Shown here in pieces: positions 10,787 through 34,916 of a DNA stretch of 64,000 nt. Under the pieces are notes generated by a model. That model saw only the letters and a list, made by a program, of their open reading frames with translations. It was not told the origin of the DNA and did no database searches. The translations under genes and the position numbers were made by a program. Origin of the DNA: Candidatus Geothermocultor quzhuomuensis (GTDB lineage: Bacteria > Actinomycetota > Aquicultoria > Geothermocultorales > Geothermocultoraceae); contig JACVJC010000003.1 of assembly GCA_015711795.1 (NCBI GenBank), forward strand, positions 44,355-108,354, given 5' to 3'. How positions within the stretch are numbered: the first letter of the stretch is position 1; each line of letters begins with the position of its first letter.

Positions 10787-10827
10787 AAAGATTATAACAA
10801 ATTAAGAGGGATTGAAAAATAAAAGAA

Positions 10828-12952
<2,125 letters not shown>

Positions 12953-13283
12953 TATTCATCCTCATCTCAATAAGCTGCTTTATTCCACTTTTCTACCAGT
13001 GGAAATTATAACATAAAAAGCTGAAGACTATCGCTTGAAGATAGAATAAATAAAATAAAAGAGAATAGCTAAAAATCAAGTTGCTACAATTAAGTGGCAA
13101 ATGAAAGACAAAAGCTTTAATTAATCAAATAACAAGTTCTTCAAGCAAAACTACCTGACCATCAATATTCCAATATTCTTAAGAATTTGAGAATAAAATT
13201 TGAGCAAGATTAGAAGCTATTCTTAAAAAACTTAGCGGTTTAACTATTTTTAACACCTTCACAGCTTTAAAAAGTGCTAAAAA

Positions 13284-17653: not shown

Positions 17654-17919
17654 CAGACCCCCAAAAGTTCACAAATCTAAAATTCCAAATTTTACATTCT
17701 AACCCATAAAACCAGACTGAAGCTAAAATTTCTTTTAAGAATATTTAATTTTTAGATGATTTTTTAGTCTTAAGCCTATTTTTAATGTACTTTATTCTTT
17801 TTCCCTTTGCTACTATATGTTGGTTCCTCATCTTTTTCCTTAGTCATTTACCCCGTCTTTGACGAGATGGTTCTTGATATTGCCTACCTTGTAAGAAATC
17901 TTTAATTTCCTTTCGGGGT

Positions 17920-18495
17920 TTAGAGCTTAGGATTTGAGCTAAAAGATTGGCTTATAGCTTTTTCAAAGCCATCTCCTACAATCAGCTTTATCACCTCAAC
18001 CGCTTGATTAAGAATAAATTCAATTTTAGCCCATTCACGACGAGTAAATGGTGAAAGAACAAAATTAGCTGGGCTTTGTTTGCCCCGAGGGCGACCAATA
18101 CCTATCCGAAGACGACAAAAATTTTCCGTGCCTAACTTCTCAATTATCGAATTTAGCCCATTATGACCACCACTTCCTCCCTTTTTTCTTAGCCTAATTT
18201 TCCCTAACGGTAAATCCAAATCGTCACAAATGACTAAAAGATTCTCCTCAGAAAGTTGAAAATGTTTAAGAATATTTCTTACTGCCCTCCCACTAGCATT
18301 AACATAAGTAAGAGGCTTAACTAAAACTATACCTTGCCCATTGAACTCTCCCGCCCCCCAAAGAGACTCAAAAGAATTAATTGAAAGAGGAATATTCAAC
18401 TCTTCTTCCAATCTATCAATTATCATATACCCCAAGTTATGACGGGTATTTTCATATCTTTTTTCGGGGTTTCCCAAACCAACGATAACTAACAT
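17920..18495 (-). CDS. pth: peptidyl-tRNA hydrolase
   Basis: MLVIVGLGNPEKRYENTRHNLGYM is a canonical Pth N-terminus. Confidence 0.9.
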   Translation of the reverse strand: MLVIVGLGNPEKRYENTRHNLGYMIIDRLEEELNIPLSINSFESLWGAGEFNGQGIVLVKPLTYVNASGRAVRNILKHFQLSEENLLVICDDLDLPLGKIRLRKKGGSGGHNGLNSIIEKLGTENFCRLRIGIGRPRGKQSPANFVLSPFTRREWAKIEFILNQAVEVIKLIVGDGFEKAISQSFSSNPKL

Positions 18496-18666
18496 TTTGC
18501 CTCAAAATCTCAATAAAAGGATAAAAGTTAAGAGATTAAAATAATTTTAGCAAATTTCCAAAGCCTGGTAAGGTAAACTATTAGTTTACAAATGTTGAAT
18601 TGGTGACCAGGAACTTAAAAGTTTGTCTCTGCCCAAACCCACAACTTTAATAGTTAGCTAAATTTT

Positions 18667-19338
18667 TTATTCTTTCGTCTCTTCTTCAGTTGGTTTTTCT
18701 TCTGTCTTAGCTTCAGTAGCAGCTACTTCCTCTTCTGGAGCTATTTCTTCCACCTCTTCGACTTTTTCCTCATAAACAGTGGGCGGAACAATTGTGAGAA
18801 CAATCTCGCTGGGGTCTGAAAGAGGGATAACTCCTTCAGGGAAGGGTAAATCTTCAACTCGCACCGCGTCACCAATCTCAAGGGAACTAATATCAACTTC
18901 TAGATGTTCAGGGAGATCTTTAGGTAAAGCTTCAACCTCAACTTCCCAAATGCCATGCTGGAGAACACCCCCGACCTCAATTCCTTTGCATTCCTCTTCA
19001 TTCTTAATTACAATTGGAACAAAAGCCGAGATTTTTTTATCCATTTGAATCTTTTGAAAATCAATATGAAGATAACCATCCCTAAGAGGATTTCTTTTTG
19101 CCTCCTTTATTATGGCAGTATGTGTTTCTCCATCATTCAAATTCAACTTAACAATGAAACTCGTTCCTTCGTGAGAATGAACAAGAGAATAAAAATCTTT
19201 TGCCTTAACCGATAATGGTAATGGCTTTATCTTATGACCATAAAGAATTGCTGGAATTTTCCCTTCACGCCTGAGTTTGCGAGCTATTCCCTTGCCCACT
19301 TTTTCTCTTTTGTCAGCCGTTAATTCCGATATTTTCAC
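18667..19338 (-). CDS. rplY: 50S ribosomal protein L25 / general stress protein Ctc, with acidic C-terminal extension
   Basis: REKVGKGIARKLRREGKIPAILYG is the L25/Ctc signature. Conserved position between prs and pth. Confidence 0.85.
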   Translation of the reverse strand: MKISELTADKREKVGKGIARKLRREGKIPAILYGHKIKPLPLSVKAKDFYSLVHSHEGTSFIVKLNLNDGETHTAIIKEAKRNPLRDGYLHIDFQKIQMDKKISAFVPIVIKNEEECKGIEVGGVLQHGIWEVEVEALPKDLPEHLEVDISSLEIGDAVRVEDLPFPEGVIPLSDPSEIVLTIVPPTVYEEKVEEVEEIAPEEEVAATEAKTEEKPTEEETKE

Positions 19339-19429
19339 CTTTCTTTAACCTCCACTATTCAGAATTGTTATATTAACAACTAAAAAAATTATTTTCAACC
19401 CTCCCAATCTCAAGAGAACCTTAAAAAAA

Positions 19430-20368
19430 TTAAGCATGCTCTAGCCCTTTAAAAAGCCGACTTACTGATTCGTCTTTATGAATGTAAAAAATGGCTCGAC
19501 CAAAAAGAGAAGCCACTGAAAGAACTTTTATCTTTTCGCTTTCCTTCCCTTCATCAATAGGAATGGTATTGGTAACAACCACTTCTTTAATAAGAGAATT
19601 TTGAAGTCTTTTAAGTGCAGGGGGAGAAAAAATGGGATGAGTAGCGCAAACATAAACCTCCTTAGCCCCTTCCCTTAATAAAGCCTCAGCACCATTAACT
19701 ACTGTCCCACCAGTATCAATCATATCATCAATGATTAAAGTTATTTTCCCCCTAACTTCACCCACAACATGGGTTACTTCAGCAACATTATGTTTAGGGC
19801 GACTTTTATGCAAAATAGCCAAACCTGCTTCTAAAAAGTCAGCACATTTTTTAGCTATTTTGACCCGACCAACATCAGGTGAAACAACGACTAATTCTTT
19901 AAATTTTTTCCCTTTTATGTAATTAACTAATAAAGGAACAGCGGTCAAATGGTCAACTGGAATATTAAAAAATCCTTGAATCTGGCCGGCATGAAGATCC
20001 ATTGTAATTAAGCGATTAATACCAGCTGTAGCTAACAAATCAGCAATTAATTTAGCACTAATTGGTTCCCTTGACTTTGCTTTTTTATCTTGGCGAGAAT
20101 AACCAAAGTAAGGAATAACTGCTGTGATGCGCTCAGCTGAAGCCCTCTTAAGCGCATCAACCATAATTAACAACTCCATAATATTTTGATTGACAGGATT
20201 ACTGATAGTTTGAATAACAAAAACATCAGCACCTCGAACACTTTCTAAAAAGCGAACATAAATTTCACCATTATCAAAATAAGATATGCTTACCTTTCCC
20301 AGTTTTACCTTCAAATAAGAGGCAATTTCCTTGCCTAGCTTTGGATGGGAATTACCAGAAAAAATCAT
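19430..20368 (-). CDS. prs: ribose-phosphate pyrophosphokinase (PRPP synthetase)
   Basis: MIFSGNSHPKLGKEIA...PRPP-binding motifs. Start moved to the internal Met because the track ORF start overlaps the glmU 3' end. Confidence 0.9.
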   Translation of the reverse strand: MIFSGNSHPKLGKEIASYLKVKLGKVSISYFDNGEIYVRFLESVRGADVFVIQTISNPVNQNIMELLIMVDALKRASAERITAVIPYFGYSRQDKKAKSREPISAKLIADLLATAGINRLITMDLHAGQIQGFFNIPVDHLTAVPLLVNYIKGKKFKELVVVSPDVGRVKIAKKCADFLEAGLAILHKSRPKHNVAEVTHVVGEVRGKITLIIDDMIDTGGTVVNGAEALLREGAKEVYVCATHPIFSPPALKRLQNSLIKEVVVTNTIPIDEGKESEKIKVLSVASLFGRAIFYIHKDESVSRLFKGLEHA

Positions 20369-20393
20369 AATCTTTCCCCGCCAAACAGGAGAA

Positions 20394-21812
20394 TTATCTC
20401 TTCTCAACTTCTTTTTTGCCCCCCTTCCTTCTTTTTCTTCTCTTCCAATCACCAATTATTATTTGCTCTGCCCTTTCCAAAGCTAAAGAATCTTCTGGAA
20501 CATCACGAGTAATAGTTGAACCGGCTCCAGTGACTGCTCTTTTCCCTATTTTAACTGGTGCTACTAACATGGTGTCGCTTCCAATAAAAGCTCCTTCCTC
20601 AATCAATGTCGGATGTTTTTCCACCCCATCAAAGTTACAAGTAATTGTTCCTGCCCCCACATTTACATCCTTGCCGATGGTAGCATCACCGATGTAGCTT
20701 AAATGAGGTACTTTACTTTTCTCCCCTAGCTCACTTTTTTTCATTTCGACAAATGTTCCAACTTTTGCTCCCTTTTTAATTACCGTCCCAGGTCTGATAT
20801 GAGCAAAGGGGCCAATTTCAACTTCATCCTCAATTGAAGCTTCATTAACCCTTGCCCAATAAATCCTGACCTTATCTCCAATTTGTGAATTAGTTATCTT
20901 AACCGAGGGACCCACTTCACACCTTTTACCAATCCTTGTCCGTCCTTCTAGAAAAGTTAAAGGGTAAATTACAGTATCTTCCCCCACTGAAGTCTCTGGC
21001 CCAATAAAAGTAAGTGAAGGTTCCAAAATAGTTACACCACCATCCATCAAGTAAGAGCAGATTCGCTCCCTCATTAACCTGTTAGCTAAAATTAAATCTT
21101 GACGAGAATTGACCCCAAGGATTTCTCTCTCGTCATTTATTTTAAAGGCATTAACCCTCAAGTTTCTTTTATTTAAAATTTCAATGACATCAGTTAAATA
21201 ATACTCTTTTTTTACATTAAGGGGTTTTACTTCAGCGACAGCTTCAAAAAGAGGTCCTGCTTTAAAAAGATAAACACCTGAGTTAACTTCCTTAATTTTT
21301 CTTGTCTCTTCTAGTGCATCTCTCTCTTCAACAATTCTTTGGACACTACCATCCGAATTATAAACTACCCGTCCATATCCAGATGGTTGAGATAATTCAC
21401 AGGTTAAAATAGTTGCTGCTGGTTTCTTCTTTTGATGAGCCATAATAAAACCCTTAAGCGTATTCAAGTTAATGAGTGGAGCATCACCAGGCATAACAAG
21501 AATTTCACTAGAAAAATCCTCAATTAAAGGTTGAGCTGATTTAATAGCATCGGCTGTCCCCTTTGGTTTTTCCTGAATAGCCCAACAAGCGTTGGCTGGC
21601 AAAACCTCTTTAACTTTCTCTGCTTGGTAGCCTAAAATAACAACTAATTTTTCAGGATTTAAACTTTGAGCTAACCTCAATGGATAATAAATTAAAGGTT
21701 CCCCACAAACAGGATGAAGCACTTTAGCTAAGGAAGACTTCATTCTTGTTCCTTCGCCAGCTGCCAAAATAACAACGACTAACTTCACACTAACTCCTTT
21801 AACTTTTTTCAA
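20394..21812 (-). CDS. glmU: bifunctional UDP-N-acetylglucosamine pyrophosphorylase / glucosamine-1-phosphate N-acetyltransferase GlmU
   Basis: N-terminal VVILAAGEGTRMKS nucleotidyltransferase motif and C-terminal left-handed beta-helix hexapeptide repeats. Confidence 0.9.
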   Translation of the reverse strand: MKKVKGVSVKLVVVILAAGEGTRMKSSLAKVLHPVCGEPLIYYPLRLAQSLNPEKLVVILGYQAEKVKEVLPANACWAIQEKPKGTADAIKSAQPLIEDFSSEILVMPGDAPLINLNTLKGFIMAHQKKKPAATILTCELSQPSGYGRVVYNSDGSVQRIVEERDALEETRKIKEVNSGVYLFKAGPLFEAVAEVKPLNVKKEYYLTDVIEILNKRNLRVNAFKINDEREILGVNSRQDLILANRLMRERICSYLMDGGVTILEPSLTFIGPETSVGEDTVIYPLTFLEGRTRIGKRCEVGPSVKITNSQIGDKVRIYWARVNEASIEDEVEIGPFAHIRPGTVIKKGAKVGTFVEMKKSELGEKSKVPHLSYIGDATIGKDVNVGAGTITCNFDGVEKHPTLIEEGAFIGSDTMLVAPVKIGKRAVTGAGSTITRDVPEDSLALERAEQIIIGDWKRRKRRKGGKKEVEKR

Positions 21813-22067
21813 AAAAGTAACTTCTCACTTGTAACCTGTCCATGAAATCAAAAATTAAAAAGTCTTGAAGGATAAAGTTCTGAAAATAAAACTAATAAGC
21901 AGTTAATAGCAAATTTAGTTTTCAATCCTCAATCCTTCAATCCTTCCTACTTCAGCTCTTCAAGCTCTTAACTTTCAGTTCCCTGTTTCCAGCCATAAAC
22001 AAAGAGCCAAAGCCAAGAACTAGAGCCATTTTATCTAAAACCTTATCTTATCTCAATGCTTATTAGA

Positions 22068-22141
22068 TGGCTGGGGCGGGAGGATTCGAACCTCCGCTGC
22101 GGGATCCAAAGTCCCGTGCCTTACCGCTTGGCGACGCCCCA
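22068..22141 (-). tRNA. tRNA-Gln (anticodon TTG)
   Basis: U1-A72 acceptor (TGGGGCG.../...CGCCCCA) as in bacterial tRNA-Gln. Anticodon stem CGGGA with loop CTTTGGA, T-arm GGAGG-TTCGAAT-CCTCC, CCA. Confidence 0.8.
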
Positions 22142-22354
22142 CCATTCCTATAAAACGATCCTTCAGACATAGCTCTCAAACGCAATTTACAAATCCTCTT
22201 GATAAATCCAGATGGTTCTCTTAAATTCGAATACCCAAATGATAAGGCTCAAAATCCCAAACAGTTTCGAGCTTCATATTTCGATTTCTCTCCAAAGATA
22301 CCACCCAGACTTCTCTATCTCTTAAGTGGTCTTATTTGCCAAAAGAGCTAAAAA

Positions 22355-22612
22355 TTATTTTTTTATCTTCTCATACTCTTCCAAAATAGCTTTTTGGATT
22401 ATCTCTCTGGTTTCTGTGTTTAATGGATGAGCAATATCACGGTATTCCCCATTGGGGAGCTTGCGACTAGGCATTGCTACAAAAAGACCTTTTTCTCCAT
22501 CAACAACCCTAATATCATGAACTACAAAATCATCATCAATTGTAATTGAAGCCATTGCTTTTACCCGATTCATTCTTTCAACGAGCCGAACAGCTACTTT
22601 GGTAATGTTCAT
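22355..22612 (-). CDS. spoVG: septation protein SpoVG
   Basis: [65 protein letters not shown] is a near-canonical SpoVG. Confidence 0.85.
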
Positions 22613-22634
22613 TTCTTTCCTCCTGTGAATTGAT

Positions 22635-23021
22635 TTAAGTCAAAGCGATTGCAGAAACTTCAATTTTCACGTCTTTTGGAAGGCGCGAAACTTGAACCAT
22701 TTCTCTGGCTGGATAGTCCTCCTCAAAAAATTCTTCGAAAACTTGATTGACCTGTGGGAATTCTTCAAGCTCAGTCAAGTAAACAGTCAATTTAACCACT
22801 TTTGAAAGAGAGCTATTGCCAGCCAATAAGATTGCCTGGAGGTTCTTTAAAACCTGCCTTGTTTGTTCTATTATTTCTCCTTTAATCACCTCCCCTGTCT
22901 TAGGATCGATTGGAATTTGACCAGAAACGAAAATTAAATTATCTAATTTGATAGCTTGGGAATAAGGACCAATTGGCTTGGGGGCATTTTCAGTTAAAAT
23001 CTTTACTTTCATTTTCCTCAC
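22635..23021 (-). CDS. ridA: RidA/YjgF/YabJ family reactive-intermediate deaminase
   Basis: [33 protein letters not shown] is the RidA signature. Occupies the yabJ position. Confidence 0.8.
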
Positions 23022-23775
23022 CCCAATTTGCCATTACATCCTGGACTAATTTTAAATCTTCTTCCTTATCAACGTCCAAACCTACTTCTGGATAAGGCGT
23101 AATAACAGCAATAATTTTAGCATTAACTAGTGAGGAAAGTCTCTCCTCAGCCTCGGTAATAGTTAATCTTTTAAAGAAGAACTTCAAGAGAAATTTAAAA
23201 CCTAAAACTTTAGCTAATCTCAAAGGACTCTTTCTAAGCGAGTAAAATTGATTGACCAATAACTCATTATTAAGTAAAATTTTGGGATTAACAAAAATTA
23301 AATTACCCCCTGTAAATGTTCCTTCTCTCACCGTAGCATAGGTTCTCTTGGCTAAAGGAAACCTTTTGTTCATTTCTTCTTTAGGAACAATTGGATAGTA
23401 ACCATCTGCTCTTTTTAGTTTACACCTTTCGAGAAAATCTTTTATCGCTTCTGAAGTTATTAGAGGAATGTCAGAAGATAAGATAAGGACTTTTTCGCTT
23501 TTAACTTCTCTCAAGCCTTTAAAAAGGTTTTCTAGCATTGTTCCATCTGTATAAATAACCTTATCTACCTTCTGAGCCCAAGAATCAACTGAAACTGAGG
23601 GGGGAATAGTGACAAAAATATGCTTAATAAAGGAACACATTCTGAGCTGGTCAACAACATATTCTATCATCAACTTTCCCCCTATTTTAATCTCACCCTT
23701 ACAGAGAGTTTTTTTGCCTTTCTTAAGGGTTCCTCCACCAAGAACAACTGCATCTAAAAGCAATTTTCCTCCCAT
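22990..23775 (-). CDS. MobA-like nucleotidyltransferase (NTP-transferase) domain protein; occupies the slot where purR sits in Bacillus
   Basis: [12 protein letters not shown]...[13 protein letters not shown] resembles the G-rich NTP-binding loop of MobA/CofC-like NTP transferases. Substrate unknown. Confidence 0.45.
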
Positions 23776-23796
23776 TTAAAAATTTAATTTGGTTAA

Positions 23797-24735
23797 CTAA
23801 TTCTCAGAAATTGAATAAAGTCCCGTTTGCTCACCAAACTCAACCCCTCTTCGAACTGGAAAAGTTAGATAAACTTCCGAAGATGTCTTTTGAGCCATTA
23901 GCTTGAGCTTTGTATTAACTTTTAAAGCCTTTTTCTTCAAATCAACTAGGGAAAAAACAGCTGGTCCACTTCCACTCATTAAAGAACCAAGTGCTCCCCA
24001 AGTTAACGCTTCTTTTTTTATCTTAAAAATAAGAGGATAAATTCTACCAGTAACTTCCTCTAAGTCATTCTCTAATCCCTGAGCAACTTCTTTAAGATTT
24101 TTTCTTTCAAGCCCTTTAAGAATAATGGAACTACTTTTCTTAGAAACCCTTTCTTTTTTCTCATCAAATTTCTCATAAATTTCCTTGGTCAGAGCTTGAA
24201 AAGGAGGCTTAAACAAGATTATCCAACACTCTGGAAGAGGAGAGAGAGAAGATACATTCTCGCCCTTTCCTTTAACGAGACAAGTTCCTCCTTTAATAAA
24301 AAAAGGGATATCAGAACCAATTTCTGAACCAATTTCTATTAATTCTTCATCCACTAAATTCAAATCAAAAAGATATCTCAACCCCACTAAAACTGCAGCT
24401 GCATCTGCACTTCCGCCCCCCAAACCAGCTGAAATTGGTATTTTTTTAATTAATTTAATAGAAATACACGGAATATTGAATTTTTTTTGTAATGATTGAG
24501 AAGCTTTTAAAACCAAATTATCCTTCCTCACTAAAAAGGGAAGATTGCACCAAAATTTGGTTTCTTTGGAAGGAGCGAGTTCTATTTCATCAGCGAGGGA
24601 AATATTTTGAATAATACTTTCAATCTCGTGATAGCCGTCTTTTCGCTTCCCAAAAACTCTGAGGTATAAATTTACCTTACCGTAAGCCAATAATTTAATT
24701 TTCACTTTTAAGCCTATTCTGAAAAGAAAAAACAA
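23797..24735 (-). CDS. ispE: 4-diphosphocytidyl-2-C-methyl-D-erythritol kinase
   Basis: KVNLYLRV...G.R.DGYHEIESI and the GHMP kinase glycine-rich loop (PISAGLGGGSADAAAVL). Confidence 0.8.
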   Translation of the reverse strand: MFFLFRIGLKVKIKLLAYGKVNLYLRVFGKRKDGYHEIESIIQNISLADEIELAPSKETKFWCNLPFLVRKDNLVLKASQSLQKKFNIPCISIKLIKKIPISAGLGGGSADAAAVLVGLRYLFDLNLVDEELIEIGSEIGSDIPFFIKGGTCLVKGKGENVSSLSPLPECWIILFKPPFQALTKEIYEKFDEKKERVSKKSSSIILKGLERKNLKEVAQGLENDLEEVTGRIYPLIFKIKKEALTWGALGSLMSGSGPAVFSLVDLKKKALKVNTKLKLMAQKTSSEVYLTFPVRRGVEFGEQTGLYSISEN

Positions 24736-24866
24736 AACTTATAACTCTACTTCTGCAGTAAACTAACTCCATTATAATACTTTTAAAGATGTTGCATCTC
24801 AAGAAAACTAAAAAGTAATTTAAGTCTTAACAGTACAAGTAAAATTATTTAAACACAAAGGAAGGT

Positions 24867-25154
24867 TCAATGCAACCAAGGAAAAAGATTTTCGCCACTT
24901 AGGGGATGAGAAAGCTCAACCGTTTTAATTAAAATATCGGCATAACTATAAGATATTCGCCGACTTTTTTCCAGAGGTTCCTCAAGTTTTATTACAAATA
25001 AATTGGGGTGAGTTTCTTCTAAAATTCCAATTCTCTCAACAATCCGACAACGACCTAAATTAGTTCGGAATTTCATCCTGGAGCCACGATAAGATTCCAA
25101 ATCTCTTCTTATTTTCTCGATTACCTCGTGTTGGAATGATTTAAATTCTGACAT
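24867..25154 (-). CDS. veg: Veg (biofilm/sporulation-associated small protein)
   Basis: RISYSYADILIKTVEL and GILEETHPNLFVIKLEE closely parallel B. subtilis Veg (RVSYSYADILTETVEL). Start set at the internal Met (MSEFKSF). Confidence 0.75.
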   Translation of the reverse strand: MSEFKSFQHEVIEKIRRDLESYRGSRMKFRTNLGRCRIVERIGILEETHPNLFVIKLEEPLEKSRRISYSYADILIKTVELSHPLSGENLFPWLH

Positions 25155-25229
25155 TTGCTCCCCTCGCAAAATGTAATTATACCTGATAAATTCAAAAAAA
25201 TCAAGATATTTGTAAGAAAAAAACATTTT

Positions 25230-26093
25230 TTAATTTAGTTTTGTTTTAATTGTTCTGTATAAATTGGTAAATTCTTCCAAATTTAATGCTTCTGCCCTTG
25301 TCTTTAAGTCTATTGACCCCTCCTTTAAACTTTCCGCTAACTCTTCTTGGCTTAAAAGGAAAAACTGAGAAGAAATCAAACTATTGAGAATCGTTTTTCT
25401 CGGGTAAGCAAAAGAAGCTGAGATTATCTTAAAGAACAAGTCAACATCTTCTACCGCTACCTTTGGAGAAGTTAATCTGACAATTTTCATCACTACCGAC
25501 TTTACTTTTGGTGGTGGTTTAAAAACATTTGGTGAAAGTTCCATTACAATTTGAGGGTCAGCAAAAAATTGCACCTTTAAGGAAAGAGCACTATAACTTT
25601 TACTCTTTGGTGTAGCAATCATTTTTTGAGCTAATTCCTTTTGAATCGTCACTACCATTTCTTTAATTTGAGGGTAAGTCTTCAAATAACTCACAATTAA
25701 AGGAGTAGCAATGTTATAAGGTAAATTAGAGACCAACTTATTAGGAAAATTTAACCCCTTAAACAACTCTTTTAAATTTAACCTTAAAGCATCTCCTTGG
25801 AATATTTTTACATTAGGCTGCCCTTGCAGAACTTCATTGAGAACTGGAAGGAGATTTTTATCAAATTCAATCCCCAAGACGAGCCTTGCTTTTTGAGAAA
25901 GGAGATAAGTTAAGTTTCCAACTCCAGATCCAACCTCTAAAACGACATCATCTGGGGAAATGTTGGCAATTTCAACAATCTTTCTCAAAATATTAAAGTT
26001 GACTAAGAAATGCTGACCAAACCTCTTTCGCGGAAAAACTTTAAAATTCTTTAAAATTTGTGAGGTCTTTAACCATCTTGAATTGTTCATCAA
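25230..26093 (-). CDS. rsmA: 16S rRNA (adenine1518/1519-N6)-dimethyltransferase RsmA/KsgA
   Basis: FGQHFLVN...VLEVGSGVGNLT SAM-binding motif. 287 aa. Confidence 0.9.
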   Translation of the reverse strand: MMNNSRWLKTSQILKNFKVFPRKRFGQHFLVNFNILRKIVEIANISPDDVVLEVGSGVGNLTYLLSQKARLVLGIEFDKNLLPVLNEVLQGQPNVKIFQGDALRLNLKELFKGLNFPNKLVSNLPYNIATPLIVSYLKTYPQIKEMVVTIQKELAQKMIATPKSKSYSALSLKVQFFADPQIVMELSPNVFKPPPKVKSVVMKIVRLTSPKVAVEDVDLFFKIISASFAYPRKTILNSLISSQFFLLSQEELAESLKEGSIDLKTRAEALNLEEFTNLYRTIKTKLN

Positions 26094-27094
26094 GGCAAGA
26101 TTTTAACGCTAAGAGACCTTCGGCCAAACTGTTGGGCTTCCTTAAGACTATCAAAGCAAAGGTCAATTCGCTTACCTTTAATTGCTCCCCCCGTGTCAGC
26201 AGCAATGGCAATACCATAACCAGGAATATAAAGCCTTGTCCCTAATGGAATAACTCTTGGATCGACTGCAACGATTCCTTTTCTTGCCCTTGCTCCTGTT
26301 GCGGTTCGGTAACCACAGCCATGACCAGGGGTATAAGCTGTAGCATTTAAAACAAGAGTTGAGTCTCCTCGTGAAACACTAATAGGAAAAATACGAGAAT
26401 AACTCCTTTGCCCTCTTGTTCCAACCGCAAGCACTGCATTAACAGGGGAAAGAGAAAGTTTCTCCGAGATTAAGGTTCGCTTAACTTCTTTACCACCCTT
26501 AATAAGTACCTTAAAAGTACGAACTAAAATACCTTCCTTCCCCCGTTGGATAACTTTTTTTTCTCCAAGAGGAAGTTTATTATCTCTTCTCTCGATTGTT
26601 TTATAGGGTATAGGTACCCTCACCGTCTTTTCTTGTTCAAAAACATGGGTAACATAGACTACTATCCCACGCTTAATTTTAGTAGAAAGCGAAGGAAAAA
26701 TAATATCTTGAGAAGTTATTTTCTCCCCTACTTCATTTAAAGCTTCTTTAACTGTTTTAGCTACTAATTTTTTAGCTTTCTTTTTACCGTCTATTACAAA
26801 ACTTACTGGTGTGGCTCTTTCTACGACTACTTTCATTCCCTCTTTAAGAGGGGTATTAAGATTTGGCTTTACTACATCCCCTGATTCGATTGTTACCCCG
26901 TTTTCTTCTAGTAAGTCACCAACCGTTTCTCCCATTGTCTTTTGATAAGTGACCCTTTCGCCAACTATCAGCTGGACATCTTTCTGAGCCCAGACATAGG
27001 CGCTTACTACCAGGAGAAAAACTAGAGCTAAAAAGGGTAAAATTACCTTCCTTCTTAGCCCTGGCGACTGAAGAAAACGTAAACTCAATCGCAC
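26090..27094 (-). CDS. YabE-like cell-wall binding protein (DUF348 - G5 - 3D domains)
   Basis: N-terminal TM helix. C-terminal 3D-domain motif ATAYTPGHGCG...GIVAVDPRVIPLGTRLYIPGYG...DTGGAIKGKRIDL. Same position as yabE in Bacillus. Confidence 0.7.
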   Translation of the reverse strand: MRLSLRFLQSPGLRRKVILPFLALVFLLVVSAYVWAQKDVQLIVGERVTYQKTMGETVGDLLEENGVTIESGDVVKPNLNTPLKEGMKVVVERATPVSFVIDGKKKAKKLVAKTVKEALNEVGEKITSQDIIFPSLSTKIKRGIVVYVTHVFEQEKTVRVPIPYKTIERRDNKLPLGEKKVIQRGKEGILVRTFKVLIKGGKEVKRTLISEKLSLSPVNAVLAVGTRGQRSYSRIFPISVSRGDSTLVLNATAYTPGHGCGYRTATGARARKGIVAVDPRVIPLGTRLYIPGYGIAIAADTGGAIKGKRIDLCFDSLKEAQQFGRRSLSVKILP

Positions 27095-27205
27095 CAGTCC
27101 TTTCAGTCTTTTCTTTATTCAGTTGTCAAGAGGGAAAAGCGGTTAAAAATTATAACACAAAAGATTTTCAAAAGCAAAACAATTTATTAATTGGGAGACA
27201 AAAAA

Positions 27206-27976
27206 TTAAGTGGCTAACTCTTCAGAAGATTGAGTTTCTCTTCTCCTCTTAATAATAAAAAGGGAAACTACTGCTCCAAAAAGAGCAAAAAGAATTACCA
27301 AAACTATTACAGCTATTAAAATAATTGCCCACCATCGAACATAAACAGAAGAAGCTTCAACCTTCCCCCCTTCAATGGGATTAATTCGCCAGGTTGCTGT
27401 TCCTTCCTTTACCTCTGAAGTATTAGCTTTAGTTAACTTCCCAGGTAAAGTAAGATTATAAACAACTGAAAAAACCTGAGCTAATCTTTTTTCCTCAGGG
27501 GTTGCCTTCTTAAGAGAAGGAAAGCTTTCCAAAAAGGTATAGTTAGAAAAGAAAAGAAAGTTTTTTTGAATTAACTTAATATTGCTTGATTTAGGCTGAG
27601 GACTTTTTTTGTCCTCCCCCATCTTTTCATTTATTTTCTTGAGCTCTTCAATATCAGAAAAGTTAAAACTCGATTCATAATGAACCTTTCCTTCTTGAGA
27701 ATATTTTTTAAAGTTGGCTTCCTGAGGCAAATCTTTTTTTAACTGCTCTTCAAGGGAAATTTGTCCTTCTTTCTTAGCTTGCGCTTCAAGGAGGGTAATA
27801 AGGTTTTCATCGATTGCAACATCAATAATCCTTTTCCCAGAACCATTAGGGTTAATTTTTGTAGTTACCGTAAAAGTGACGCAGCCTGATAAAAAGAGGG
27901 CAAAGATTAAAAGAATTGAAAAAAGAAGATAATATATTTTTTTCATCTTTGCCCCCTTATAAATTGAGTAAGTCAA
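27206..27976 (-). CDS. lipoprotein with C-terminal TM anchor, unknown function
   Basis: LSGC lipobox and a C-terminal hydrophobic helix. Confidence 0.4.
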   Translation of the reverse strand: MTYSIYKGAKMKKIYYLLFSILLIFALFLSGCVTFTVTTKINPNGSGKRIIDVAIDENLITLLEAQAKKEGQISLEEQLKKDLPQEANFKKYSQEGKVHYESSFNFSDIEELKKINEKMGEDKKSPQPKSSNIKLIQKNFLFFSNYTFLESFPSLKKATPEEKRLAQVFSVVYNLTLPGKLTKANTSEVKEGTATWRINPIEGGKVEASSVYVRWWAIILIAVIVLVILFALFGAVVSLFIIKRRRETQSSEELAT

Positions 27977-28016
27977 AAATAGCTTATTGGCTTCGGGGCG
28001 TCAAGAAAAATTTTTT

Positions 28017-28778
28017 TTAAAAAGAGAAAACTTCATAAGCATTATTGGTTGTAATCTTTGCAACCTCATTTAAAGTTACCTCTTTAAGAAAGGAAATTTT
28101 TTCAGCAATTAAGGTTAGAAGAGAAGGTTCATTAGTTTTTCCTCTAAAAGGGTGAGGAGTTAAATAAGGAGAATCAGTTTCAAGTAAAAGATGGGAAAGA
28201 GGAAGTTCCCGCACAACTTCACTTAATCTTCTAGCATTTTGGAAGGTAATTGGCCCGGCGATAGAAATTAAATACCCCATCTTTATTAGCTCTTTCCCCA
28301 TTTCCAGAGAACCTGAGAAACAATGAAAAACGACTTTTCTTTCTTTGGAACCTGCTTCCCTAATTATCTCTAAAGTATCTTGATAAGCTTCTCGATTGTG
28401 CACTATGAGGGGCAAGTTTAACTCTAAAGATAAATCAATCTGCCTTTTAAAAGCATCCTTTTGTTTCTTTCTCGGAGAAAAATTGTGATAGTAATCTAAA
28501 CCCGTTTCTCCAATAGCTACCACCTTAGAATTCATAGCTAATTTTTTTAGCTCAGCAATTGTCTTCTGGCTAACTTCATGGGCATCGTGAGGATGAATAC
28601 CAATAGCGGCATAAACACTTTCAAATTGATTAGAAATGGAAAGAGACTTGAGGCAGGAATCATAATCAGTTCCCACTGTTATTATCTTTTCAATCCCTTT
28701 AGTGAAAGCTCTCTTAATTAGAATTTTTACTTCCTCAGGCTGATAAAGGTCAAGATGAGTATGGGTATCAATGAGCAT
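28017..28778 (-). CDS. tatD: TatD family metal-dependent hydrolase/DNase
   Basis: MLIDTHTHLD start. TIM-barrel metal ligands. Confidence 0.85.
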   Translation of the reverse strand: MLIDTHTHLDLYQPEEVKILIKRAFTKGIEKIITVGTDYDSCLKSLSISNQFESVYAAIGIHPHDAHEVSQKTIAELKKLAMNSKVVAIGETGLDYYHNFSPRKKQKDAFKRQIDLSLELNLPLIVHNREAYQDTLEIIREAGSKERKVVFHCFSGSLEMGKELIKMGYLISIAGPITFQNARRLSEVVRELPLSHLLLETDSPYLTPHPFRGKTNEPSLLTLIAEKISFLKEVTLNEVAKITTNNAYEVFSF

Positions 28779-29184
28779 AACTCCCCCCCAAACTAGGCTG
28801 AAATTCTAAGGGCTTGAAATCTAATTTTAGTTTTATCGCCTACTTTTTTTCAATCCTTTTTGAGCTATGCTTTAAATTTTTTAGTTATCCTTTGTATTAG
28901 GTGGATGGATTATTCCCGCGATTTGGACAAACTTTTTATTGGATACATTTATACTTCTAGTTTTTCCCCTTCTCTTCGCTAATCACCTAGTGCAACGCGG
29001 TAAAAACAACTTACTAATTTTATCAATATCTAGTGACATTAAAAATGTGGTAAAAAGTTAGGTTCACTTTAGTTTTTAAATTTTTGTGAGAGCCTTGGGT
29101 TCATCCTGAACAAAGTTAAAGTCTTTTGCTTTCACTCTTTACTTCTCCAGCTTTTCAGCCTGCTTTTTGCTAATTGTTAGCTGG

Positions 29185-29694
29185 TTACTGATTAAAGAAA
29201 TCCTTAACTTCCTTATGGCACCTTTTACAATCTTTTTCTTTGGGCGCTTCTGTATCGGTGAACTTGGTTGCCCCATGAACAACTCGAGAATGACAATCAG
29301 TGCACTGAATTTCATTTTTAAGGTGAATGTGGTGCTCAACTTTCCTTTTCCCAACCCACTTTATTAAGGTAACTTCTTGGTGGCATTTTAAACAGTTTTC
29401 GTTTCCAACTCGACTTTTAATGGGTTTAGCAAATCCACCTGTGAAATGAAGAAAAACTCCCTTCACCCCTTTAAAGTAAGCAAGGGCTGAGCCAATTGCC
29501 CCTGGCTTAGTGTGGCAAAGTCGGCAGTCAAACCCGTGATGAGAAGAGTTTTCCCAAGAATTATAAGCTTCTTTCATCTCATGACAAAAACGACAAAAAG
29601 AAGGTTTAGAAGCATAATCCAAAGCAAAAATAAAAGCGACTAAAAATATAATGGAAAAGCCAATCCCTAGAATTCTTCGCTCATCAGGATTCAT
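29185..29694 (-). CDS. NapC/NirT/NrfH-family membrane-anchored multihaem cytochrome c (5 CxxCH)
   Basis: N-terminal TM helix followed by CRFCH, CRLCH, CLKCH, CTDCH, CKRCH. Architecture of quinol-oxidising NrfH/NapC. Confidence 0.7.
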   Translation of the reverse strand: MNPDERRILGIGFSIIFLVAFIFALDYASKPSFCRFCHEMKEAYNSWENSSHHGFDCRLCHTKPGAIGSALAYFKGVKGVFLHFTGGFAKPIKSRVGNENCLKCHQEVTLIKWVGKRKVEHHIHLKNEIQCTDCHSRVVHGATKFTDTEAPKEKDCKRCHKEVKDFFNQ

Positions 29695-30728
29695 TATTTG
29701 GCCTCCTTTTTCCTCAAAGCTTTAACCTTTTGGGCTTCCGATTTTAACTGAGCTAAGTGAGATTTAAGCCGAGCCGTTCCATACCAATGACCATAATCAG
29801 GGCTAATGTGGTAATAACCTTGAGTAATATTAGAAAAATCATATTTTAACATTTGGAAAAAGACTTGCTCAATGAAAGAAGTTTCTTCATAAGCTAAAGT
29901 CTTACCTGATAAAGGAGGAATGCCATGCTCTAACTTTGAGCCAGGAACTTCTTTTAAATACCCTTCTTTATATAAATCTTGAATGATTCTCCTTCCTTCT
30001 TCCAAAAGAGCAATTGACTCTCTTTTTATCTTGTCACATTTAAGAAGGTAATCTTGGGCAAACTTTCTAGTGTGGCATTCACTACAAGCCTTAATAATTT
30101 CGGAGCGCTTTTTAGTCACTTTGTGATTACCGTGACAATTTGAACAAGTAGGCTTGCCACTTTCTTGAGCAATCCGCCTATGAACTGAAGAGTCATATGC
30201 TTCTTTTTGAGGGTGGTCTTGACCCATATGGCAATTTTCACACCCACTCGTTACCGTTAAAGGTGGTTTAGGTTTCTTAAATTGATGGGCGGAGTGGCAA
30301 ACATCGCACCTTTCCTGAATTGAATGGCAAGCTTCGCAACCAAGCTTTTGAACCTCAAAACTTTGAAGCTTATACCTCAAATTAGCTCGAGCTAAATTAA
30401 GACCAAGAGAATGTCGGCTCCTCTGCCAATCAGCAAATTCCTTTTCGTGGCATCCAGCACATTTTTTTGGCAAGACCCGACCTTTCAACCTTTTCATTTC
30501 CCGATGGTTTATTCCGTGACAAGCAGTGCAACCAACTCCATTTTCTTTGTGTTTACTCTTCTCCCATAAGATAACTTGAAACTTAGAATATTTGCGGTGG
30601 CAAATGAGACACTTTTCATCTTTTTTGGTAGTTTCCCTCGTTTCTGAAGGAGAGCAGCCAAAAATGATAATTAAAAAAATAAATATCAAAAAAAGAACAA
30701 ATACTTTAATTCTTTTCAAAAAGTTCAC
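29694..30728 (-). CDS. periplasmic octahaem c-type cytochrome (8 CxxCH in 344 aa)
   Basis: Signal peptide. CLICH, CTACH, CAGCH, CEACH, CDVCH, CENCH, CSNCH, CSECH. Start codon overlaps the stop of the NrfH-like gene, which suggests translational coupling. Confidence 0.7.
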   Translation of the reverse strand: MNFLKRIKVFVLFLIFIFLIIIFGCSPSETRETTKKDEKCLICHRKYSKFQVILWEKSKHKENGVGCTACHGINHREMKRLKGRVLPKKCAGCHEKEFADWQRSRHSLGLNLARANLRYKLQSFEVQKLGCEACHSIQERCDVCHSAHQFKKPKPPLTVTSGCENCHMGQDHPQKEAYDSSVHRRIAQESGKPTCSNCHGNHKVTKKRSEIIKACSECHTRKFAQDYLLKCDKIKRESIALLEEGRRIIQDLYKEGYLKEVPGSKLEHGIPPLSGKTLAYEETSFIEQVFFQMLKYDFSNITQGYYHISPDYGHWYGTARLKSHLAQLKSEAQKVKALRKKEAK

Positions 30729-30810
30729 CTCTCAGGTTTACCTTTGAGGTATACCTTTTAGGTATTATTAACAAAATTTTTTTAAGGAGCAACCAAAAAT
30801 TAAAATAAAG

Positions 30811-32925
30811 TTAAAAAGGGCAAATAATAGCAGGACAACCACCTGCGTATTCAGAATCAGCACTAATGTGGTCTTCCTCTCCTGTCTCCTTAGCTAAAAG
30901 AGAGCCAATATAAAGAACCTGTTCTTTTCGGCTCCCATAACGATAGACAGTAATTCCCTTGCACTTTAAATCATAAGCTAATAAATAAACTCGGCGCACA
31001 TCTTCTGGAGAGGCATCGAAAGGTAAGTTAACCGTTTTTGAAACAGCATTATCAGTGTAACGCTGAAAGACAGCTTGCATCTTGACATGCCACTCAGGGC
31101 TAATGTCAAAAGCAGTAACAAAAATTCTCCTTATCTCCTTGGGAATCTTTTTTATCCCTCTTGCTGTTCCCTTCTTAGCTAATTCCATCATCAAGCCCTC
31201 ACTATAAAAACCACATCGAATAGCAACTTCCTCAAAGATGGGGTTGACCTCCAGTAACCTAGTTCCTTCCATTACATTTCGGATAAAGGAAAGAGCAAAC
31301 AAAGGTTCAATCCCACTACTTGCCCCAGCAATAATGCTAATTGTTCCAGTTGGAGCAATGGTGGTTAAGCTCGCGTTGCGCATTGCTCGATAACCTTTTT
31401 TCCTCCAAATACTCTTCTCAAAGTTAGGAAAAGAGCCTCGGCTTTCTCCTAACTCGATTGATTTCTTTCTTGCTTCCTCAGAAATGAATTTCATCACTTT
31501 TTGAGCAATCTTAAGTGCTTCCTTTGAATTGTAAGGAATGCCTAACTTAATAAGCATTTCAGCAAAGCCCATTACCCCTAAGCCAATTTTACGATTTCCT
31601 TTGGTCATTTCCTCCACTTCTTTCCGAGGAAATTGGTTAACATCAATGACATTGTCTAAAAAATGAACAGAACTTCTAACTATCATTCCTAATTTTTCCC
31701 AATTAATTTGATTATCTTTAACCATCTTAGCTAGGTTAATTGAGCCTAAATTACAACTTTCAAAAGGTAAAAGGGGTTGTTCGCCACAAGGATTAGTACT
31801 TTCAATTTGACCAAGAAAAGGGGTAGGATTATGACGATTAATTTCATCGATAAATATGAGTCCAGGGTCACCAGTTCGCCAAGCCATTGTAACAATTAAA
31901 TTAAAAACTTCTTTAGCTTTAAGTTTCTTTGTCTTTTTGCCTGTTCGCGGGTTAATAAGGTAATATTCTTGATCGTTCTTTAACTTATTAATAAACTCAT
32001 CGGTAACGGCAACTGAGAGATTAAAGTTGGTTAAAAATCCTTCTTTCTCTTTAGCAGCAATAAAATCTAAAATATCAGGATGGTCAATTCGCAAAATACC
32101 CATATTGGCTCCCCTTCTTCTTCCTCCTTGCCTTATCACACTGGTCGCAACATCGAAAACCTGCATAAAAGAAAGAGGGCCTGAGGCAATCCCCATAGTC
32201 GTTTTAACCACATCTCCCTTGGGACGAATTCGAGAAAATGAAAAGCCAACTCCCCCTCCTGACTTATGAATTAATGCCATATCCTTAACTGCATCGAAAA
32301 TTCCTTCAATCGAATCCTCAACTGGCAAAACATAGCAAGCTGATAGTTGCCCTATCTCTGTTCCAGCATTCATTAAAGTAGGTGAATTGGGTAAAAAATC
32401 AAGATTAACCATCATCTTGTAAAAGTCTTCTTCAGCTTGAGCAACACTTCTCCTTCCATAAATTTTTTCTGCTTGAGCAACTGCCCTGGCAACTCTCTCA
32501 AACATTTCTTTTGGTGTCTCAACCACCATCCCTTTCTCGTCTTTCAGCAAATATCTTCTTTTCAAAACCTTAATGGCGTTTACTGAAAGTTTTAAATCAT
32601 CTTTGACGCCAAAAAACTTCTTTGCTTCCCTCACCTCAAAGCGTTTTTGACGGTAAAGAATATAAGCCCGAGCAATATCAGCATATCCCTTCTTTATTAA
32701 AACCTCTTCGACTAAATCCTGAATATTTTCAACCGTCGGTATTTTCCCCTTATAATTCTTTTCTAATAAAGAAACAACTTCACTAGAAACCTGAGAAGCT
32801 AAATCTTTTTCCTGGTGACCAGTTGCTTGAGCAGCTCGGGCAATAGCAAAAGCTATCTTTCCTTGGTCAAAATTGGTGATAGTTCCGCTTCTTTTTCTTA
32901 CTTTTTTAATTTGAAAATTTCCCAT
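30811..32925 (-). CDS. nrdJ: adenosylcobalamin-dependent (class II) ribonucleoside-triphosphate/diphosphate reductase with N-terminal ATP-cone
   Basis: ATP-cone (KKVRKRSGTITNFDQGKI). Class II RNR core (LSACYVLPVEDSIEGIF..., SGGGVGFSFSRIRPKGD). C-terminal redox Cys pair (GGCPAIIC). Confidence 0.8.
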   Translation of the reverse strand: MGNFQIKKVRKRSGTITNFDQGKIAFAIARAAQATGHQEKDLASQVSSEVVSLLEKNYKGKIPTVENIQDLVEEVLIKKGYADIARAYILYRQKRFEVREAKKFFGVKDDLKLSVNAIKVLKRRYLLKDEKGMVVETPKEMFERVARAVAQAEKIYGRRSVAQAEEDFYKMMVNLDFLPNSPTLMNAGTEIGQLSACYVLPVEDSIEGIFDAVKDMALIHKSGGGVGFSFSRIRPKGDVVKTTMGIASGPLSFMQVFDVATSVIRQGGRRRGANMGILRIDHPDILDFIAAKEKEGFLTNFNLSVAVTDEFINKLKNDQEYYLINPRTGKKTKKLKAKEVFNLIVTMAWRTGDPGLIFIDEINRHNPTPFLGQIESTNPCGEQPLLPFESCNLGSINLAKMVKDNQINWEKLGMIVRSSVHFLDNVIDVNQFPRKEVEEMTKGNRKIGLGVMGFAEMLIKLGIPYNSKEALKIAQKVMKFISEEARKKSIELGESRGSFPNFEKSIWRKKGYRAMRNASLTTIAPTGTISIIAGASSGIEPLFALSFIRNVMEGTRLLEVNPIFEEVAIRCGFYSEGLMMELAKKGTARGIKKIPKEIRRIFVTAFDISPEWHVKMQAVFQRYTDNAVSKTVNLPFDASPEDVRRVYLLAYDLKCKGITVYRYGSRKEQVLYIGSLLAKETGEEDHISADSEYAGGCPAIICPF

Positions 32926-33121: not shown

Positions 33122-33313
33122 TTAGGCTTCTTCGTTTAAAGCTTGAACTAATTCATCTGGGTCGATACCATGAGCTTGAGCTGCTTCCGCTAACGTCTCA
33201 CCACTCGCAATTAAACAGCCTAAACAGTGCATCCCATATTGAAGTAAAATCTCAGAGGCCTTTGGGTTAGCGTTAAGAACTTGAGAAATAGTAAAATCTT
33301 TTTCAATCTTCAT
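33122..33313 (-). CDS. DUF1858 (hybrid-cluster-protein-associated redox disulfide) domain protein
   Basis: MHCLGCLIASGETLAEAAQAHGID matches the DUF1858 signature, which is also the N-terminal domain of ScdA/RIC proteins. Confidence 0.6.
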   Translation of the reverse strand: MKIEKDFTISQVLNANPKASEILLQYGMHCLGCLIASGETLAEAAQAHGIDPDELVQALNEEA

Positions 33314-33367
33314 CTTGTTACTCCTTTATTTAAAATTATACCATAAATTGCTTACCTTTAACCAACT

Positions 33368-34066
33368 CTACTGGGCTCTCTTTTTCTTTTGGAGAAACCC
33401 TTCAGTATGGCAAATAATACAATCGTTCTTTAAAACCTTACCATTGTGACAACTAAAACAACTTTCTTCAGTAAGAAAATTCTCATAACCTTTAATCTCA
33501 TGAGCTACACGATTATGACACTTAGTACAATTCATTCCCAATTTTGAATGAGCCTCATGGTCAATTTTCAAACCTTGAGAAGGAGTAATGTTCTTTAAAG
33601 TATGACATTGGAGGCAAGATTCATCACTAATATCTTTAGCTAATTTACTCTCTTTGTTAATTGGCTTTTCGTAATTACCTGTTATCTTAAGAATAAGACT
33701 TTTAGGAGCAACCGTCATTTTGTCCTTAAGGAGAGCAATTAGCCCAGGTTCAACATGACAACTGATACAGTTAACATTGCGATGATTTGACTCTTTCCAG
33801 GCTCTAATATCAGCCTCCATTTCATGGCAGAAAGAACAAAATTGAGGTCGGCAAGTATAAGCAATTCCACCAACAAAACCTAAAACAAGAAAAAAAGCTA
33901 AAGCACTTAAAAGGAAAACGTTTCGGGAAATTACCAAAACAAAAGCTCTTCGAGAAAAACCAACCCCTTTGCGTGCTTCAGTCGTCGTGCATTTTCTAGG
34001 ATCTCTCCCTAAAATGCACTCTCCACTTCGAGTTTGATAATCACAATCTGCGCATTTACTTACCAC
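33368..34066 (-). CDS. NapC/NirT-family membrane multihaem cytochrome c (6 CxxCH) with cytoplasmic Cys-rich N-terminal extension
   Basis: N-terminal CADCDY...C..C zinc-ribbon-like segment, a TM helix, then CSFCH, CISCH, CLQCH, CTKCH, CFSCH, CIICH. Paralogous to 29185..29694 (both have C.FCHEM after the TM). Confidence 0.65.
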   Translation of the reverse strand: MVSKCADCDYQTRSGECILGRDPRKCTTTEARKGVGFSRRAFVLVISRNVFLLSALAFFLVLGFVGGIAYTCRPQFCSFCHEMEADIRAWKESNHRNVNCISCHVEPGLIALLKDKMTVAPKSLILKITGNYEKPINKESKLAKDISDESCLQCHTLKNITPSQGLKIDHEAHSKLGMNCTKCHNRVAHEIKGYENFLTEESCFSCHNGKVLKNDCIICHTEGFLQKKKRAQ

Positions 34067-34271: not shown

Positions 34272-34916
34272 TTGCTTTTGCCTCATCAAAGAAAGCTTAA
34301 AAGCCTTAATTTCCTCCCAAAAGAAGCTAAGAAAAGACTTAAATGGATTGACTACTACTTGAAACACAAAAATGGGAGGAAAACTTGCCATTATTTTGGA
34401 ATAAGTCAAACCACCTTCTACAAATGGCTTAATCGCTACGAAAAGATGGGACCCAAGGGCCTAGAGAACCGCTCAAAAAGACCAAAGACCTTCCGCTGGG
34501 ATCTCTTCTCTATCTTGACACTAAACATTTAACCTTTCCTGGAAAGACCTTTTATCAGTTTACAGCCATTGATTCAAAAACCAGAATCAAGTTCATCAAA
34601 GTCTATTCGGGAGCCTCTTCCAAGGCCGGAAAACTCTTTCTCCATAAGTTAATAAAGTTTATGCCTTTTCCTATCTCAAACATTCAAACCAATAATGGAG
34701 CTGAATTCTTAAAGTATTTCCATCAGGAACTTGAAAGGCGAAACATAGCTTACTACTTCTCTTTCCCTAACTGTCCTAAACAGAACTCACGAGTGGAATT
34801 ATACCTACAACTACGTGATACCCCATCAGTCTCTTGATTATTTAACTCCCATGAATTACTTGGAATCTCTAAAAAAGGAGGATAAAATTAACTCCCAAGT
34901 GTCTACGATGATATGA
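34272..34916 (+). pseudogene. IS481-family transposase remnant (frameshifted, internally shortened)
   Basis: Frame 1 gives the HTH region ...GISQTTFYKWLNRYEKMGPKGLENRSKRPKTF. After a frameshift it reads ...LDTKHLTFPGKTFYQFTAIDSKTRIKFIKVY...IQTNNGAEF...CPKQNSRVE (degenerate PQTNGKVE). A further shift gives HQSLDYLTPMNYLESL. Total coding potential is about 215 aa against about 350 aa for intact IS481. Confidence 0.6.

Follow-up and report, generated by a model that had tools for sequence, protein, structure and literature searches.

Gene pair at the locus

Two adjacent cytochrome c genes were analysed on the minus strand of a 64,000-nucleotide stretch of DNA (hereafter, the window) from Candidatus Geothermocultor quzhuomuensis (assembly GCA_015711795.1, contig JACVJC010000003.1, positions 44,355 to 108,354). 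The upstream gene (29694..30728, minus strand) encodes an octahaem cytochrome c assigned to the hydroxylamine oxidoreductase (HAO) family, with eight CxxCH haem-binding motifs in 344 aa if translation begins at GTG 30728 or in 341 aa if it begins at TTG 30719. The downstream gene (29185..29694, minus strand) starts with ATG and encodes a 169-aa pentahaem membrane cytochrome of the NrfH/NapC type with five CxxCH motifs. Both open reading frames, with their 8 and 5 haem motifs, had been reported in a first-pass annotation made from the sequence alone and are present at these coordinates. Six-frame translation of the 64 kb yielded 22 CxxCH motifs, of which 13 fall in the pair, 6 in a second NrfH-like gene (33368-34066), and 3 elsewhere. 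Shuffled copies of the pair segment contained a mean of 0.013 such motifs; set against the 13 of the pair, this value of about 0.01 excludes a chance origin of the haem motifs.

The TAA stop codon of the octahaem gene (29696-29694, minus strand) shares one base, position 29694, with the ATG of the NrfH-like gene (TAATG), an arrangement consistent with translational coupling. An overlap at this position had been noted previously, but as a four-base ATGA; the overlap holds and the ATGA form does not. The NrfH-like ATG also has its own Shine-Dalgarno (SD) sequence, AGGAGG, 7 nt upstream. For the octahaem gene, an SD-like GAGAGGTG at 30733-30726 lies 6 nt before TTG 30719 and overlaps GTG 30728, and the TTG is also the start in P0001, the sole public record of the protein, which is 100% identical. 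Because of this well-spaced SD and the start used in P0001, TTG 30719 appears to be the more credible start, and the GTG of the longest open reading frame is probably wrong. Residues of the octahaem protein are nevertheless numbered throughout according to the 344-aa (GTG) version.

Octahaem protein and its predicted catalytic haem

The octahaem protein scored 63.7 bits against the Pfam family PF13447 (Multi-haem_cyto, HAO type), for which the curated cut-off is 21.9, and its best solved relatives all belong to the HAO family: KsHOX (PDB 4n4j, 2e-22), followed by Brocadia HOX, KsHAOr, HDH, and NeHAO. When the search was made with a clade profile, E values for HAO-family chains in the PDB ranged from 1e-61 to 3e-71. 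In alignments with epsilon-Hao-like proteins, anammox HAOs, and the nearest relatives, the eight haem motifs occupy invariant columns in the register of HAO haems 1-8. An AlphaFold model of the monomer, built from a 96-sequence alignment, reached a predicted local distance difference test score (pLDDT) of 89 and a predicted template modelling score (pTM) of 0.82, and its fold comprises the HAO haem-binding core plus the three long C-terminal helices that would form the trimer interface; by fold as well as by sequence, KsHOX is the closest solved structure. Given the PF13447 match, the PDB relatives, the shared eight-haem register, and the confident model, the protein is almost certainly a bona fide member of the HAO family that has been cut to the common core. 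The profile searches and structure prediction proposed in the first-pass annotation thus bore out an HAO assignment, while the Otr, MtrC/OmcA, and cytochrome c554 families that it had also put forward gave no full-length profile or fold match to the octahaem protein. Nor was there a full-length match to a non-catalytic c3/c7-type carrier, the outcome that it had named as arguing against a novel enzyme. Against the NCBIfam equivalog model for HDH, the protein scored 69.7 bits, where the cut-off is 900.

At 341-344 aa, the protein falls well short of the length of characterised HAO, NrfA, and Otr enzymes, as had been remarked from the sequence, and the reduction in size can be traced to loop deletions. 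Roughly 100-200 residues are absent, from the C-terminal tail and from the loops that follow haem 2 or join haem 4 to haem 5 (where epsilon-Hao has its insert), haem 6 to haem 7, and haem 7 to haem 8. The linker between haems 7 and 8 (30084..30128, minus strand) has 15 residues in the alignments (G200-A214) versus 45 in NeHAO, where it carries the pocket residue Tyr334. As judged from the aligned sequences, loss of this loop is the main structural departure from characterised HAO enzymes.

An exhaustive HMMER search of 1.84 billion cluster representatives returned 818 hits at E <= 1e-3, of which 31 reached E <= 1e-30. Apart from the octahaem protein itself, the best matches are 34-41% identical to it, and it therefore represents an isolated lineage; a word-indexed search returned 7 hits. 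Just three of the hits that carry eight or more haems are shorter, namely P0085, P0114, and P0060 (265-329 aa). Each of them may be a fragment, and in the alignment P0060 has no C-terminal PDY…G motif. The next-longer complete relatives measure 353, 358, 370, 378, and 383 aa, in a range extending up to 390 aa. The octahaem protein is thus extreme in its compactness, but not unique. At its N terminus, the model has a helix at residues 2-24, and a signal peptide with a lipobox (…IIIFG-C25; 30654..30719, minus strand; Cys codon 30656-30654) can be read from the sequence. This motif, if processed as in lipoproteins, predicts a protein anchored by lipid outside the cytoplasmic membrane.

Several features point to a catalytic haem. 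The haem 4 motif, C131-E-A-C-H135 (30324..30338, minus strand), is invariant in the alignments, where it coincides with the catalytic five-coordinate haem of HAO (GCAHCH in KsHOX and GCTMCH in NeHAO). The HAO-family catalytic acid-base pair is represented by D171-H172 in CHMGQDHPQ (30213..30218, minus strand), which aligns with D267-H268 of NeHAO (numbered from alignment coordinates) and with CHMGIDH of KsHOX and is kept in most relatives. The protein has seven non-motif histidines for its eight haems (H60, H74, H106, H148, H183, H202, and H307, of which H74 is partly conserved), a complement that would give seven bis-His haems and leave haem 4 open, as is the pattern in the family. The CxxCK catalytic haem motif of NrfA and ONR is absent. 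A check of the distal ligands, suggested in the first-pass annotation, accordingly yields a predicted catalytic haem site that keeps the Asp-His pair and lacks the cross-linking tyrosine.

In oxidising HAOs, this tyrosine bonds haem 4 of the neighbouring subunit to form the P460 cofactor. The corresponding region of the octahaem protein is P310-D-Y-G-H314-W-Y316, with G317 next (29781..29798, minus strand), and His314 stands at the cross-link position. The column was assigned by anchoring on the C-terminal helix (…EIK/Q.EA…) and, independently, by MAFFT L-INS-i alignment with PDB fragments, in which the His314 column holds Tyr467 of NeHAO (GGWTYTEGW) and the tyrosines of KsHDH (NDATYSDGS) and KsHOX (NQTYGNGS). 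All three share T-Y-x-x-G, whose glycine begins the well-aligned C-terminal helix. KsHAOr has a tryptophan in the same column (…VSWWWGQ…), and histidine is the majority residue among non-anammox relatives. Tyr316, which a pairwise phmmer alignment with KsHOX suggests as the cross-link tyrosine, was rejected by both the C-terminal-helix anchoring and the MAFFT alignment with real sequences. Absence of the cross-link tyrosine has been linked to reductive catalysis (PMC8042395), and a published description of reductive HAOs gives them "His at the key site" (PMC12758564). Since the cross-link column of the octahaem protein holds His314, in agreement with this literature, the enzyme is likely to be of the reductive type.

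NrfH-like partner and genomic setting

The 169-aa protein has a single N-terminal transmembrane helix and scored 51 bits against the NapC/NirT family PF03264 (cut-off, 24.1), with the four-haem core present. Residues 10-145 align with Desulfovibrio vulgaris NrfH, and residues 146-169 form an extension that adds haem 5 (C156-K-R-C-H160; 29215..29229, minus strand). Haem 1 has the NrfH-type signature CxxCHxM in the form C34-R-F-C-H-E-M40 (29575..29595, minus strand), aligned with CTSCHIM of D. vulgaris NrfH; we take the methionine to have the role at the quinol-site haem that it has in the NrfH structure 2J7A. The profile match and NrfH fold, together with the count of five CxxCH motifs, agree with the earlier description of the partner as a five-haem cytochrome of the membrane quinol dehydrogenase type. 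The Pfam family Cytochrome_C7 matches residues 119-166. A word-indexed search retrieved the protein itself only, and a profile search was dominated by tetrahaem proteins (53 of 105 hits). Haem 5 occurs at the same spacing in four short proteins (P0244, P0246, P0251, and P0262; 193-210 aa) and also aligns with haem 5 of NrfH-headed cytochromes with 10-15 haems. An NrfH with five haems is therefore unusual, though not without parallel.

In a rough neighbour-joining tree, the octahaem protein is sister to a seven-haem Anaerolineae type and lies beside a group of NrfH::HAO fusions and a nine-haem group. All three loci recovered for this type, from metagenome-assembled genomes (L001:5269-7149, L002:5411-7233, and L081:876-2126; P0012 type) have a tetrahaem NrfH-like gene directly upstream of the HAO-like gene. 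Their HAO-like proteins, 33-36% identical to the octahaem protein, likewise have short haem 7-8 loops and a lipobox. They differ in that haem 1 is lost, leaving seven CxxCH motifs, in that the nrfH-like gene comes first, and in a partner that has four haems and CxxCHEL where the 169-aa protein has CxxCHEM. These HAO-like proteins have THWHG in the cross-link region, and L001 and L002 have a gene for a LuxR-type response regulator a short way upstream.

In two metagenomic proteins, P0017 and P0041, an NrfH-like tetrahaem N terminus is fused to an HAO-like octahaem core. A third fusion, P0152, also metagenomic, was detected independently, and the three hold 11-12 haems per chain; a search of the HAO hits with a small NrfH hidden Markov model returned numerous spurious matches between haem motifs, and P0152 alone was counted as an independent detection. 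Among 80 epsilon-Hao-like loci, 22 have hao followed 0-13 nt on by a gene for a polytopic membrane protein of about 498 aa with an NrfH-related pentahaem core. This protein contains five CxxCH motifs and one CX3CH (FCGTACH), for example at L023:7345-8841, L029:7336-8847, and L047:6200-7699, and the loci come from diverse phyla (among them Ignavibacteria, Zixibacteria, Calditrichota, and Acidobacteriota). To our knowledge, this apparently conserved partner class has not been described. A Parcubacterium has been reported to carry a nine-haem HAO gene adjoining a NapC/NrfH gene (PMC5220378); we would guess that it belongs to the nine-haem group near the octahaem protein in the tree. The overlapping genes, together with adjacency or fusion in the nearest relatives, sustain the proposal of the first-pass annotation that the pair is organised like the NrfHA and epsilon-Hao quinol:acceptor modules.

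On the minus strand, the pair is preceded by a six-haem NrfH-like gene, a DUF1858 gene, a hairpin, a ribonucleotide reductase gene, and an 82-bp gap and is followed by a 406-bp gap and tatD. The second NrfH-like gene (33368-34066, minus strand) encodes 232 aa with six CxxCH motifs and a CxxCHxM haem 1, and its last haem aligns with haem 5 of the 169-aa protein. It may have a Cys-rich cytoplasmic N-terminal extension, which could be a start-codon artefact, and no catalytic partner adjoins it. The DUF1858 gene (63 aa, within 33122-34066, minus strand), 2.4 kb upstream of the pair, belongs to the redox disulfide family associated with the hybrid cluster protein (TIGR03980, 87.8 bits), a weak piece of context for an N-oxide role. 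Downstream of it is the terminator-like hairpin (33062-33041, minus strand), and between the two sets of cytochrome genes lies a class II-type ribonucleotide reductase gene with an ATP-cone (30811-32925, minus strand), upstream of which Rfam identified no cobalamin riboswitch at the gathering threshold.

Two abutting perfect 13-bp copies of the palindrome TACCT-N3-AGGTA (30739..30764) occupy the stretch 20-45 nt before the TTG start, beside a -10-like AATAAT in the 82-bp gap. No further perfect copy occurs in the 64 kb, where allowing up to one mismatch gives 6 matches versus 1.5 expected. A dimeric regulator might use this tandem as its operator, and because the palindromes adjoin the -10-like element, the pair probably has its own regulated promoter.

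Downstream lies a housekeeping block in an order like that of Bacillus subtilis (8790-28778, minus strand), running from tatD through yabE-like G5/3D, ksgA, ispE, glmU, prs, ctc, pth, mfd, prsA-like, mazG, eno, and divIC to an S1-domain yabR-like gene. This order suggests a Bacillota-like host of about 36% GC, seemingly an anaerobe, and such a host would fit the lipid anchor predicted for the octahaem protein. The first-pass annotation had set the pair after the tatD end of this block and had taken the intervening noncoding DNA of about 400 bp to suggest an insertion. On the minus strand, however, tatD is downstream of the pair, and the 406-bp gap (28779-29184) separates the nrfH-like 3' end from the start of tatD, for which it contains a promoter-like site. 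The gap showed no stable structure (z = +1.0) and no Rfam family, GC content across the window is flat (0.35-0.41) with no shift at the pair, and neither direct nor inverted repeats were found flanking the pair. An insertion or mobile-element origin therefore has nothing in its favour: there are no flanking repeats and no GC anomaly, and the gap is the upstream region of tatD. Rfam matches in the window are limited to tRNAs away from the pair. In the vicinity of the cytochrome genes, the one sign of a mobile element is a degraded rve-type transposase 3.5 kb upstream (34272-34916, plus strand), where several short open reading frames resemble fragments of a helix-turn-helix part and an integrase-core-like part (…NGAEFL…, …HQSLDYLTPMNYLE…).

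Proposed function and its alternatives

We propose, with a probability of roughly 55%, that the pair is a quinol:N-oxide reductase of the epsilon-Hao-NrfH type, that is, a reversed hydroxylamine-ubiquinone redox module (HURM), with nitrite, hydroxylamine, or NO as the substrate. The 169-aa protein, held in the cytoplasmic membrane by its one N-terminal helix, would oxidise (mena)quinol at the CxxCHxM haem 1. Electrons would then cross the four haems of the NrfH core and the C-terminal haem 5 and pass to the octahaem protein, which would be held by its lipid anchor on the membrane's outer face. There, seven bis-His haems would relay them to the open coordination site of haem 4, where nitrite, hydroxylamine, and/or NO may be reduced with protons from Asp171-His172. 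Replacement of the cross-link tyrosine by His314 would tune the enzyme for reduction. Complex formation, a trimeric state, the direction of the electrons, and the substrate are what we infer, and the role of the pair could be respiratory or detoxifying. HaoA acting with NapC/NrfH/cM552 provides a precedent for a quinol:nitrite reductase (PMC3701875). The first-pass annotation had envisaged a streamlined or novel oxidoreductase: the loop deletions indeed make the enzyme streamlined, but the HAO family and the NrfH-type module are both known, and it is not of a novel kind.

A number of observations weigh against this proposal. The NrfH-like protein scored 60.4 bits against the NCBIfam NrfH equivalog TIGR03153, below the cut-off of 134.2. 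Deletion of the haem 7-8 loop removes the stretch in which NeHAO carries its third pocket residue (Tyr334), so the active site may differ from those of characterised HAOs. Tyr312 and Tyr316 each lie two residues from the cross-link position, and from sequence alone a cross-link is possible. Metagenomic HAO-like proteins of the HWYG type mostly have no NrfH-like neighbour (7 of 80 have one within 4 kb), which makes the HAO-NrfH partnership specific to certain clades rather than a rule of the family. Lastly, genes of the nap, nar, nrfA, nir, nor, and hcp types are missing from the 64-kb window, as is any other nitrogen-cycle gene, which bears on the substrate.

Four alternatives, taken here in order of falling probability, all appear unlikely. 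An ancestral octahaem nitrite-reducing core has been inferred for the NrfA/ONR/HAO superfamily, and the octahaem protein, with about 320 mature residues and eight haems, might be a near-ancestral version of such a core in a Gram-positive-type cell, or a minimal HAO with different catalysis, in its products or through a non-nitrogen substrate. A distal pocket without the haem 7-8 loop and an NrfH with a bridging haem 5 make different catalysis conceivable, though we consider it improbable. Multihaem chains fed by an NrfH-type quinol dehydrogenase have also been proposed for Gram-positive bacteria, and by extension the octahaem lipoprotein could be surface-exposed and serve as a haem wire or as a terminal reductase whose acceptors are extracellular or non-nitrogen, for example Fe(III), humics, or an electrode. 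This we doubt, since the Asp-His pair and the pattern of seven histidines for eight haems are retained and point to a substrate-binding haem; furthermore, the HAO core is intact, including the three trimer-forming helices, and no additional cytochromes of the multihaem, cell-wall, or outer kind occur in the locus.

The electrons might instead flow in the opposite direction, as in ammonia oxidisers, where HAO-c554-cM552 sends hydroxylamine's electrons into the quinone pool. In such a forward HURM, the octahaem protein would oxidise hydroxylamine or hydrazine, and the NrfH-like protein would deliver the electrons to the quinone pool. The closest solved structure is indeed that of an oxidising enzyme, KsHOX, opposite whose cross-link tyrosine the pairwise phmmer alignment sets Tyr316; 29 of 96 relatives keep the HWYG motif, Tyr316 included, and proteins of the NrfH/cM552 type can operate in either direction (PMC3701875). 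With His314 placed in the cross-link column by the helix-anchored and MAFFT alignments, we think this direction quite improbable. Least probable, by analogy with MccA and Otr, is a quinol-dependent reductase of sulfur compounds or small oxyanions such as sulfite or tetrathionate. The superfamily does include sulfite and tetrathionate reductases, and remodelling of the distal pocket by deletion of the haem 7-8 loop could shift specificity. However, the octahaem protein has no CxxCK, CX15CH motif, or Cu-site signature, TIGR04315 (Otr) is absent from its NCBIfam hits, and MccA gave weak local hits only. In MccA and Otr, moreover, the active haem is in the N-terminal module (PMC9250108), while the octahaem protein keeps the HAO-type haem 4/Asp-His site.

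Among known systems, a quinol:N-oxide reductase of the proposed kind is close to epsilon-Hao with NapC/NrfH of Campylobacterota (Nautilia and Campylobacter), which likewise combines an HAO-family octahaem protein lacking the cross-link tyrosine with a membrane quinol dehydrogenase and for which the same flow from quinol to nitrite or hydroxylamine is predicted. The two are distinct in sequence: identity to epsilon-Hao is 22-26%, the tree places the octahaem protein elsewhere, and the WPNSGIGRxNPDGS insert that epsilon-Hao has between haems 4 and 5 is missing, as are several other loops. The octahaem protein is also about 100 aa shorter and predicted to be lipid-anchored, and its partner is pentahaem and appears to be translationally coupled downstream. 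KsHAOr of Kuenenia stuttgartiensis (Kustc0458/0457; PDB 6h5l) is an NO-forming nitrite reductase, but one of 517 aa that is soluble in the anammoxosome, has a dihaem cytochrome rather than an NrfH-type partner, and holds Trp where the octahaem protein has His314. KsHOX (4n4j), NeHAO (1fgj/4fas), and HDH (6hif) are enzymes of 500-580 aa with long loops that have the cross-linking tyrosine (P460) and oxidise NH2OH or N2H4; NeHAO has the pocket Tyr334 as well. NrfHA of D. vulgaris (2j7a) shares the small-subunit fold, the CxxCHxM haem 1, and the combination of a membrane quinol dehydrogenase with a multihaem catalytic subunit, but the NrfH-like protein described here is partnered with an HAO-type protein rather than NrfA.

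In sum, the gene pair is a pared-down version of the known module of a reductive HAO with an NrfH-type partner and opens no new category of system. Metagenomic "hao" hits are usually no sign of nitrification. If the proposed function is true, the octahaem protein would be one of the smallest complete HAO-family enzymes, with a self-contained two-gene link to the quinone pool, and the reductive HAO/NrfH (reverse-HURM) design would reach beyond Campylobacterota and anammox bacteria. With about 40 residues per haem, it would also offer a compact scaffold for structural and electrochemical studies of how HAO enzymes are tuned toward reduction or oxidation.

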